NCBI GenBank assembly: GCA_016707005.1
Contig: JADJIQ010000005.1
Span: 388,038-452,037 of the forward strand
Source: Ignavibacteria bacterium
Lineage (GTDB): Bacteria; Bacteroidota; Ignavibacteria; Kapaibacteriales; Kapaibacteriaceae
Direction of reading: 5' to 3'
Length of the DNA: 64,000 bases
Below the pieces are notes generated by a model. That model searched no databases. It was given only the letters and a program-made list of their open reading frames with translations, and was not told the origin of the DNA. Shown here piece by piece: positions 54,722-54,801 of the stretch. Each line of letters opens with the position of its first letter. Position 1 is the stretch's first letter. The position numbers and the translations under genes were made by a program.

Positions 54722-54801
54722 AGTTACTCAGTTACGGGGTTACGGGGTTACGAGGTTACGAGGTTACGGGGTTACGGGGTTACGGGGTTACGGGGTTACG
54801 G
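54722..54801. repeat. 10 tandem octamers [AG]GTTAC[GT][GAC], mostly GGTTACGG; equivalent to (GGGGTTAC)n
   Basis: Read directly. GGGG runs at 54768-71, 54776-79, 54784-87 and 54792-95, plus GGG at 54800-02, separated by TTAC. Confidence 0.95.

Follow-up and report, generated by a model that had tools for sequence, protein, structure and literature searches.

Among the closest described counterparts of the repeats treated here are the TAACTGA heptamer direct repeats found between genes in marine Beggiatoaceae, Cyanobacteria and a few Bacteroidetes (MacGregor 2015, PMC4679880). Some longer arrays are found in the Bacteroidetes, and MacGregor proposed for these repeats a role at the RNA level in which the repeat itself is recognised (PMC4679880). 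In H. influenzae, the transcript of the (ATCTTTC)n repeat in the 5' UTR of hmw1A/hmw2A forms an RNase III hairpin by pairing with a G-rich arm, and the repeat has control over an adhesin (PMC12721329). Any repeat that stands in front of a gene in Bacteroidota also has to be read against the primary-sigma promoters of that phylum, which consist of a -7 element, TAnnTTTG, and a -33 TTTG that is weak or absent (PMC7366714).

Within the 64,000-nt stretch of Ignavibacteria DNA analysed here (the window), an earlier note had pointed to an array of ten octamers in front of an MscS gene. Both parts of that description hold: ten units can be read on the plus strand and the array is recovered by TRF (54731-54802, period 8, 9.0 copies, 96% matches, score 130), while the gene downstream is of MscS type by its Pfam matches. 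The features of the locus are:

54720..54802, minus strand (mscS sense): octamer tandem array before mscS, from the sequence and TRF
54700..54719, minus strand: degenerate units CCATCTCC GTACCTTC GCAC, which hold the 8-nt register down to the ATG
54703..54710, minus strand: candidate Bacteroidota-type -7 box TACCTTCG (TAnnTTCG) with CCG in front of it, 3 nt upstream of the mscS ATG
53632..54699, minus strand: mscS-family mechanosensitive channel gene, 355 aa, PF00924 (9e-22) and PF21088
54850..54884, minus strand: intrinsic-terminator-like hairpin and T-run, ending the upstream gene
54912..55460, minus strand: lipoprotein-like ORF upstream of mscS, with an LAGC lipobox

On the sense (minus) strand the array reads CCC (GTAACCCC)4 (GTAACCTC)2 (GTAACCCC)2 (GTAACTGA)2, the GTAACTGA pair being proximal to the gene; on the plus strand this is TCAGTTAC x2 (54720-54735), GGGGTTAC x2 (54736-54751), GAGGTTAC x2 (54752-54767), GGGGTTAC x4 (54768-54799) and a final GGG (54800-54802). 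The span first given to it, 54722-54801, was two bases off, the gap to mscS is 20 nt (54700-54719) and not 23 nt, and the two central GGTTACGA units said to divide the array correspond to the GAGGTTAC pair. The 20 nt between array and ATG are invariant in 11/11 assemblies, and the position of the mscS start codon is kept in orthologues.

The hairpin and T-run at 54850-54884 separate the transcript of the upstream gene from mscS. The lipoprotein-like ORF stands between thrS and mscS as an insertion that this species shares with its nearest relative alone, and the terminator hairpin is likewise an insertion between the two genes in this species. A Pfam search with the ORF gave no match, an Rfam scan of 54500-55100 returned no family at E<=1, and blastn of the upstream region against plasmids found no match. 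Just upstream of the array, CAUUGCCAAAG (54807-54819) is complementary over 9-10 bp to CUUGGCAAUG (54670-54681, mscS codons 7-10), a pairing that would loop out the whole array if the array were transcribed; the fold as a whole is no better than that of shuffles (z = 0.61), and we treat the pairing as chance.

The array is one of a very large number in this genome (3.5 Mb, 53% GC, five contigs). Over the whole genome TRF gave 1072 rows, in which periods 7 (163 rows) and 8 (254 rows) and their multiples are greatly over-represented; a crude gene call places 368 of the 417 period-7/8 arrays between genes. Genes were called with our own crude dicodon caller (2695 genes, 89.6% coding); ten predicted starts were compared with Pfam profile starts, and as the profiles begin at residues 1-6 of the predicted proteins the checked start codons are sound. 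The commonest octamer is GTAACCCC, with about 40 arrays in the genome (39 by count), and it coexists with dozens of non-G-rich units, among them GCGAATA, GTAACTA, AGCACATT, ATGACGTT and GTATCTCC. Three consecutive copies, (GTAACCCC)3, occur 45 times against 0 for a reversed-pattern control, so the array family is not a product of chance. The genes downstream of its arrays form a housekeeping set: isocitrate dehydrogenase, LepA, formate-THF ligase, CoaE, enolase, RecO, a Mur ligase, a thiolase, PurK, ThrRS and MscS. Nor is the family tied to translation starts alone, since an array of the GTAACCCC family ends 7 nt before tRNA-Arg(TCT), both in this genome (C2:753186-753260, outside the window) and in a congener (L074 398-472).

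The range of the exact unit is narrow. Among 25 species of the genus searched, (GTAACCCC)3 is present in only three (45 occurrences here, 15 in one congener and a single one in another), and it is absent from 38 other relatives and from all of 400 other genomes of the phylum. Within that range, positions are stable: in a congener with an MscS 62% identical to ours, and counting only its arrays with an identifiable downstream protein, 4/5 precede orthologues of genes that bear arrays here (p = 2e-7), namely those for RecO, an SSB-like protein, an aldehyde dehydrogenase and a FAH-family protein. One further contig, DATGWS010000022.1, belongs to a congener by its mscS and thrS synteny and encodes an MscS 79% identical, and is deposited as Candidatus Didemnitutus (Verrucomicrobiota); the label is probably a taxonomic mislabel of a MAG.

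A second array of the same class lies in the window itself, where the earlier note had seen the octamer recur near 57507:

57505..57536, minus strand: second array, upstream of thrS, GTAACTGC GTAACCCC GTAACCCC GTAACCTC

Directly adjoining it is a (GTCACTAT GTCACTTC)n array with a 16-nt super-period (57537-57614), which reaches into the 3' end of the next ORF (57597..58892). The window holds other repeats as well. At 34383-34463, (TAATGTGC)4.5, a 7-nt spacer and (GCACATTA)4.8 form inverted octamer arrays, a long perfect hairpin beside a gene start that belongs to the same repeat landscape but has units of a non-polar family. At 49032-49123, (ACTAGTT/ACTGGTT)5 followed by (GTAACTGA)4(GTAACTA)3 makes opposed heptamer/octamer arms between a stop codon and an rfbA-like start at 49143, and at 43072-43153 a 28-nt unit, ACTCCGGGAGTCTTACTCTCCCGGAGTG, is repeated 2.9 times with 92% matches, every unit being internally palindromic.

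The GTAACCCC-class arrays are strongly polar. Counting runs with three or more GTAAC-core units of which two or more are GTAACCCC (n = 44), the C-rich strand is the sense strand and points into the downstream gene in 39 of these CCC-rich runs (p = 1.4e-7), at a median distance of 12 nt from the downstream start codon; GTAAC arrays without CCC units have no orientation bias (36 vs 45). Polarity extends to the inside of the arrays, in that a CCC tail is found on the gene-proximal unit of 4/28 arrays against 22/28 for the distal unit (p = 2e-6), and the gene-proximal unit has T at position 6 in 57% of cases, with TTC as its commonest tail. A template-strand G-quadruplex that would block read-through and a C-rich RNA that would serve as a Rho loading site were considered and set aside: orientation agrees with the downstream gene more often (39/44) than with the upstream one (26/44), and arrays are also found in divergent gaps.

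The arrays may be linked to promoters. As described for Bacteroidota (PMC7366714), this genome uses TAnnTTTG before both tRNA and protein genes: its tRNA genes are preceded by TATCTTTG, a TAnnTTTG box 3-11 nt before the mature 5' end, and at 3-7 nt before predicted starts sense-strand TAnnTTTG is counted 11, 32, 20, 10 and 7 times (~80 genes; mode 4), against 0-1 for reverse and reverse-complement controls. A second, broad hump lies 23-60 nt before starts. TAnnTTCG is likewise enriched at 3-7 nt (~46 genes in excess of the perfect motif), and the extended consensus, yCGTAnnTTTGC, holds also in genes without a repeat within 130 nt. No signal of a -33 element is detectable genome-wide, as reported for F. 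johnsoniae, and a sigma-70 promoter scan of 54600-55000 found nothing, as expected with a Bacteroidota-type sigma. The peak at 3-7 nt implies a large class of leaderless or near-leaderless mRNAs, and, on the strength of these motif counts, many genes of this organism seem to form a leaderless regulon served by the -7 box without a -33 element; in B. thetaiotaomicron, by comparison, only ~3.7% of 5' UTRs are shorter than 10 nt.

At mscS the start reads TACCTTCG-CAC-ATG, the box departing from TAnnTTTG by one T-to-C. The thrS array is followed in the same way by a box-like TATTTTCG (57496-57503), then TCC and the ATG (57492), and the rfbA start reads TAATTTCC-CTC-ATG (box region 49146-49153). 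Of the 39 arrays, 7, those of mscS and thrS among them, have a strict TAnnTT[TC]G at their end, 2-9 nt from the start, as against 5% of all genes (p = 0.003). Within the account favoured below, we give about even odds to a leaderless mscS mRNA driven by the -7-like box that lies 3 nt ahead of the ATG. Because the box sits there, the array before mscS is likely to lie upstream of the transcription start, and the earlier suggestion that the mscS mRNA leader carries (GTAACCCC)n is doubtful.

The array might nevertheless be transcribed as the 5' leader of mscS, either as an unstructured, G-poor ribosome landing pad without a Shine-Dalgarno sequence or as a site for an RNA-binding protein on (GUAACCCC)n RNA. 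The sense RNA would have almost no structure (-1.7 kcal/mol for 91 nt); leaders across this genome tend to be rich in C and poor in G, with an SD-like motif in only ~23% of genes; and arrays adjoin the starts of well-expressed genes without SD, some of them transcribed inside co-directional pairs. TRAP and HutP recognise periodic sites, which the invariant 5-nt core and variable spacer of the array recall. A repeat-recognising RNA-level role has its precedent in the proposal for TAACTGA repeats (PMC4679880). Set against this, the -7-type box 3 nt before the mscS ATG has the modal geometry of the leaderless class, there is no other box between the upstream terminator and the array, and the mscS genes of most relatives have no such leader. 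The same arrays also precede a tRNA gene, where translation is irrelevant, which weakens a purely translational role for the family. We consider a transcribed leader unlikely as the explanation of the array. Pairing of the repeat with the 3' tail of 16S rRNA was rejected, as the 16S rRNA carries GTAAC in the same sense and not its complement; its anti-SD is the ordinary CCUCC.

Comparison of strains bears out the earlier note's expectation that copy number may vary. Of at least 23 contigs that code for an identical MscS protein, ten were compared at this locus with the window. The resulting 11 assemblies, 98.3-99.7% identical over 4 kb and with identical MscS, have six versions of the array between them, with 7.4, 7.8, 8.4 (three internal variants) and 10.4 units, which differ in length in steps of 8 nt between invariant flanks. 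Most of these assemblies are MAGs, but a read is longer than an array, and it is whole units that distinguish the alleles. Alleles follow strain lineages, and there is no variation among near-identical assemblies. Across the genus (MscS identity 41-80%) the picture is different again: in ~23/28 species the distance from the thrS stop to the mscS ATG is 0-35 nt, without a repeat, and the remaining species have mscS loci with 2, 3, 3 or 5 units and at most two CCCC tracts. Given the short, repeat-free spacer of most species, the mscS array is a recent expansion and, to judge by these loci, a dispensable one inside an ancestrally minimal spacer.

Whole-unit differences between closely related strains, in a tract that lies in a promoter or 5' region, are what a phase-variation (contingency) locus would show, with octamer slippage switching or grading mscS expression, and the 7-nt repeats upstream of H. 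influenzae hmw1A offer a precedent (PMC12721329). Against such a role, there are ~400 such arrays per genome, and the family fronts housekeeping genes (enolase, ICDH, LepA, thrS, Mur ligase) and a tRNA rather than surface or restriction genes, which argues against a classical contingency locus; among the genes downstream of the arrays no association with surface, virulence or restriction-modification functions was found. Moreover, the tract cannot lie between promoter elements where no -33 element exists, and the alleles follow lineages instead of varying among near-identical assemblies. Phase variation is thus highly improbable here.

The variability within units is very unevenly distributed. 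In 227 units of 36 arrays, mismatches by position are G 1, T 3, A 2, A 3 and C 3 in the GTAAC core and C 20, C 42 and C 38 in the tail, that is, 12/1135 core sites against 100/681 tail sites (p = 6e-32). Per position, variability in the tail exceeds that of the core 7-14-fold, and C-to-T changes account for 71% of the total. This bears directly on the feature of the window allele that the earlier note had described as a canonical G-quadruplex motif:

54768..54802, plus strand (mscS template strand): potential G-quadruplex GGGG(TTACGGGG)3TTACGGG, by the regular expression G3+N1-7 x4

The motif is indeed present at the distal end of the array, and the note was right that the G-rich strand is the template strand of mscS, the gene lying on the minus strand. 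ViennaRNA with G-quadruplex energies predicts a four-layer G-quadruplex for the G-strand of this allele. The motif is kept in only 5/11 strain alleles, however. In the commonest, a 7-unit allele found in five assemblies, the tracts are split 2+2 by two GAGG units, and ViennaRNA predicts no G-quadruplex for it; it could form a weaker one with a 20-nt central loop. The G-quadruplex potential of the window allele, as modelled, is real but allele-specific.

In reporter systems, expression can change when a G-quadruplex is put into a bacterial promoter or 5' region. With these known effects in mind, a selected template-strand DNA G-quadruplex regulating mscS transcription, tuned by copy number, would draw on the five G3-4 tracts and 4-nt loops of the window allele with its predicted four-layer fold, on the template position of the G-rich strand in 39/44 arrays of the family, and on the 20 arrays genome-wide that fit the canonical motif. 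Against such a regulator, the motif occurs in no orthologue, the orthologous loci having 0-2 tracts; the strand bias is equal with the motif (18/20) and without it (21/24); the motif would lie ~70-105 nt upstream of the likely start site; and the genome has 72 merged canonical motifs, 20 of them GTAAC arrays, which is no enrichment over shuffled genomes with their 98-114. The distribution of mismatches also speaks against it: the tail, which holds the would-be tetrads, varies and the GTAAC "loop" is near-invariant, the opposite of what selection for a G-quadruplex would lead one to expect. The proposal of a selected feature is therefore not supported, and we regard a regulatory G-quadruplex as very unlikely; the motif is probably incidental, a by-product of the CCCC tail rather than a conserved control element. 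More generally, a textbook G-quadruplex motif in a bacterial promoter region can be the by-product of a simple-sequence-repeat family, and the two readings can be told apart without wet experiments by comparing strains and species and by seeing how variable each position of the unit is.

Several of the 72 motifs are poly-G stretches that resemble assembly artefacts. Outside the window, very long poly-G or G-rich runs stand at C5:929696-931744 and C5:1395860-1396342, with a stretch of 483 consecutive G among them. These have the look of artefacts of sequencing or assembly and inflate the G-quadruplex counts of the assembly.

The account that we favour, and think probably right, is that the array is tolerated, slippage-prone DNA upstream of a promoter, a member of a polymorphic SSR family whose G-quadruplex motif is incidental, in front of an mscS that is probably leaderless. 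It is one locus of a genome-wide polymorphic family of 7-8-nt SSRs, in the commonest octamer class, defined by GTAAC and a pyrimidine tail. Such an array gains and loses whole units, most plausibly through replication slippage, and C-to-T changes arise in the tails. Arrays of this class show the polarity described, with the C-rich strand as the sense strand of the adjoining downstream gene and gene-proximal units enriched in T. At mscS, the last degenerate units may supply the -7 box TACCTTCG 3 nt before the ATG and so give rise to a leaderless mRNA, which would place the array at about -12 to -105, a region where the promoters of this genome are without sequence information. In such a position its length may drift with little consequence, largely neutrally.

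This account does not cover everything. Many arrays adjoin an ATG without a T-rich box, as at enolase (GTAACTACC-ATG), and those in co-directional gene pairs must be transcribed as intercistronic RNA, so that no single mechanism accounts for every locus. That arrays persist at orthologous genes and that the GTAAC core is near-invariant both hint at some constraint beyond tolerated slippage. A4 and C5 of the core are near-invariant although they correspond to the unconstrained "nn" positions of the promoter box; neither this invariance nor the persistence of the unit across well-diverged species follows from neutral slippage.

It is tempting to speculate that the GTAAC/GTATC octamers with pyrimidine tails are tandem, transcriptionally silent copies of the extended -7 box, a possibility that we hold tentatively and think less likely than not to be correct. 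Written in the frame of the box, the array unit CCGTAACCCCG matches the extended box at all specified positions except for TTT-to-CCC; compared with CCGTAnnTTTG it has the same 8-nt period and the same CG-TA and G anchors, with CCC instead of TTT, and the variable tail positions of the unit are exactly the three TTT positions of the box. No tandem perfect boxes exist anywhere in the genome. If the units are silent boxes, arrays would grow from leaderless promoters or serve as a promoter reservoir, in which one to three C-to-T transitions in a tail create an active box beside a start codon or tRNA; this would explain the polarity, the T-enriched gene-proximal unit, the persistence at orthologous genes and the absence of tandem perfect boxes. 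Silenced box copies in tandem are not known as a feature of promoters.

Whichever of these readings applies, the polarity, the box-like end unit, the apparent leaderless regulon and the persistence of arrays bear on the role of 7-8-nt intergenic repeats in Bacteroidota, Cyanobacteria and Beggiatoaceae, on the origin of promoters in lineages without Shine-Dalgarno-led initiation, and on repeat arrays as raw material for promoters.

Compared with systems already described, the window allele shares its tract and loop layout, and a predicted ability to fold, with canonical (G3+N1-7)x4 motifs such as the ciliate telomeric G4T4/G4T2 and bacterial promoter PQS. It differs from them in that the motif is not conserved across strains or species, its tract positions are the most variable, and the array is one unit type among dozens of non-G-rich units in the genome. 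The hmw1A/hmw2A repeat (PMC12721329) is similar as a 7-8-nt repeat between promoter region and start codon whose copy number differs between strains; in contrast to it, the sense RNA here is unstructured, the genes are housekeeping and the tract is probably upstream of the start site. The long SSRs of prokaryotes (5-11-nt units) and the STRR heptamers of Cyanobacteria are likewise of short unit, mostly intergenic, present at many loci, variable between strains and unproven in function. The lineage (Ignavibacteria-like) and the unit repertoire differ from theirs, as do the strong polarity of the octamer class and the T-enrichment of its gene-proximal unit.

There is also a resemblance to the TAACTGA repeats (PMC4679880). 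There as here, a genome has many intergenic arrays, mostly forward and a few nucleotides from a start codon, without a Shine-Dalgarno sequence and before genes that have no functional theme and include essential ones; the corresponding figures in this genome are 368 intergenic of 417 period-7/8 arrays, 39/44 forward and a median distance of 12 nt, with no SD. The two gene-proximal units of the mscS array (GTAACTGA) even contain TAACTGA. The units here are octamers (GTAACCCC, GTAACCTC, GTAACTGA) with a C-rich tail in GTAACCCC, however; the whole-genome TRF table holds no TAACTGA heptamer family, and the exact GTAACCCC unit is confined to three species of one genus. Unlike in that paper, where such a link was not considered, motif positions appear to connect the arrays here with a -7 box and with starts that are likely leaderless. 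Taken together, the GTAACCCC family resembles the TAACTGA-type intergenic repeats already described, and the array in front of mscS is most likely tolerated DNA.
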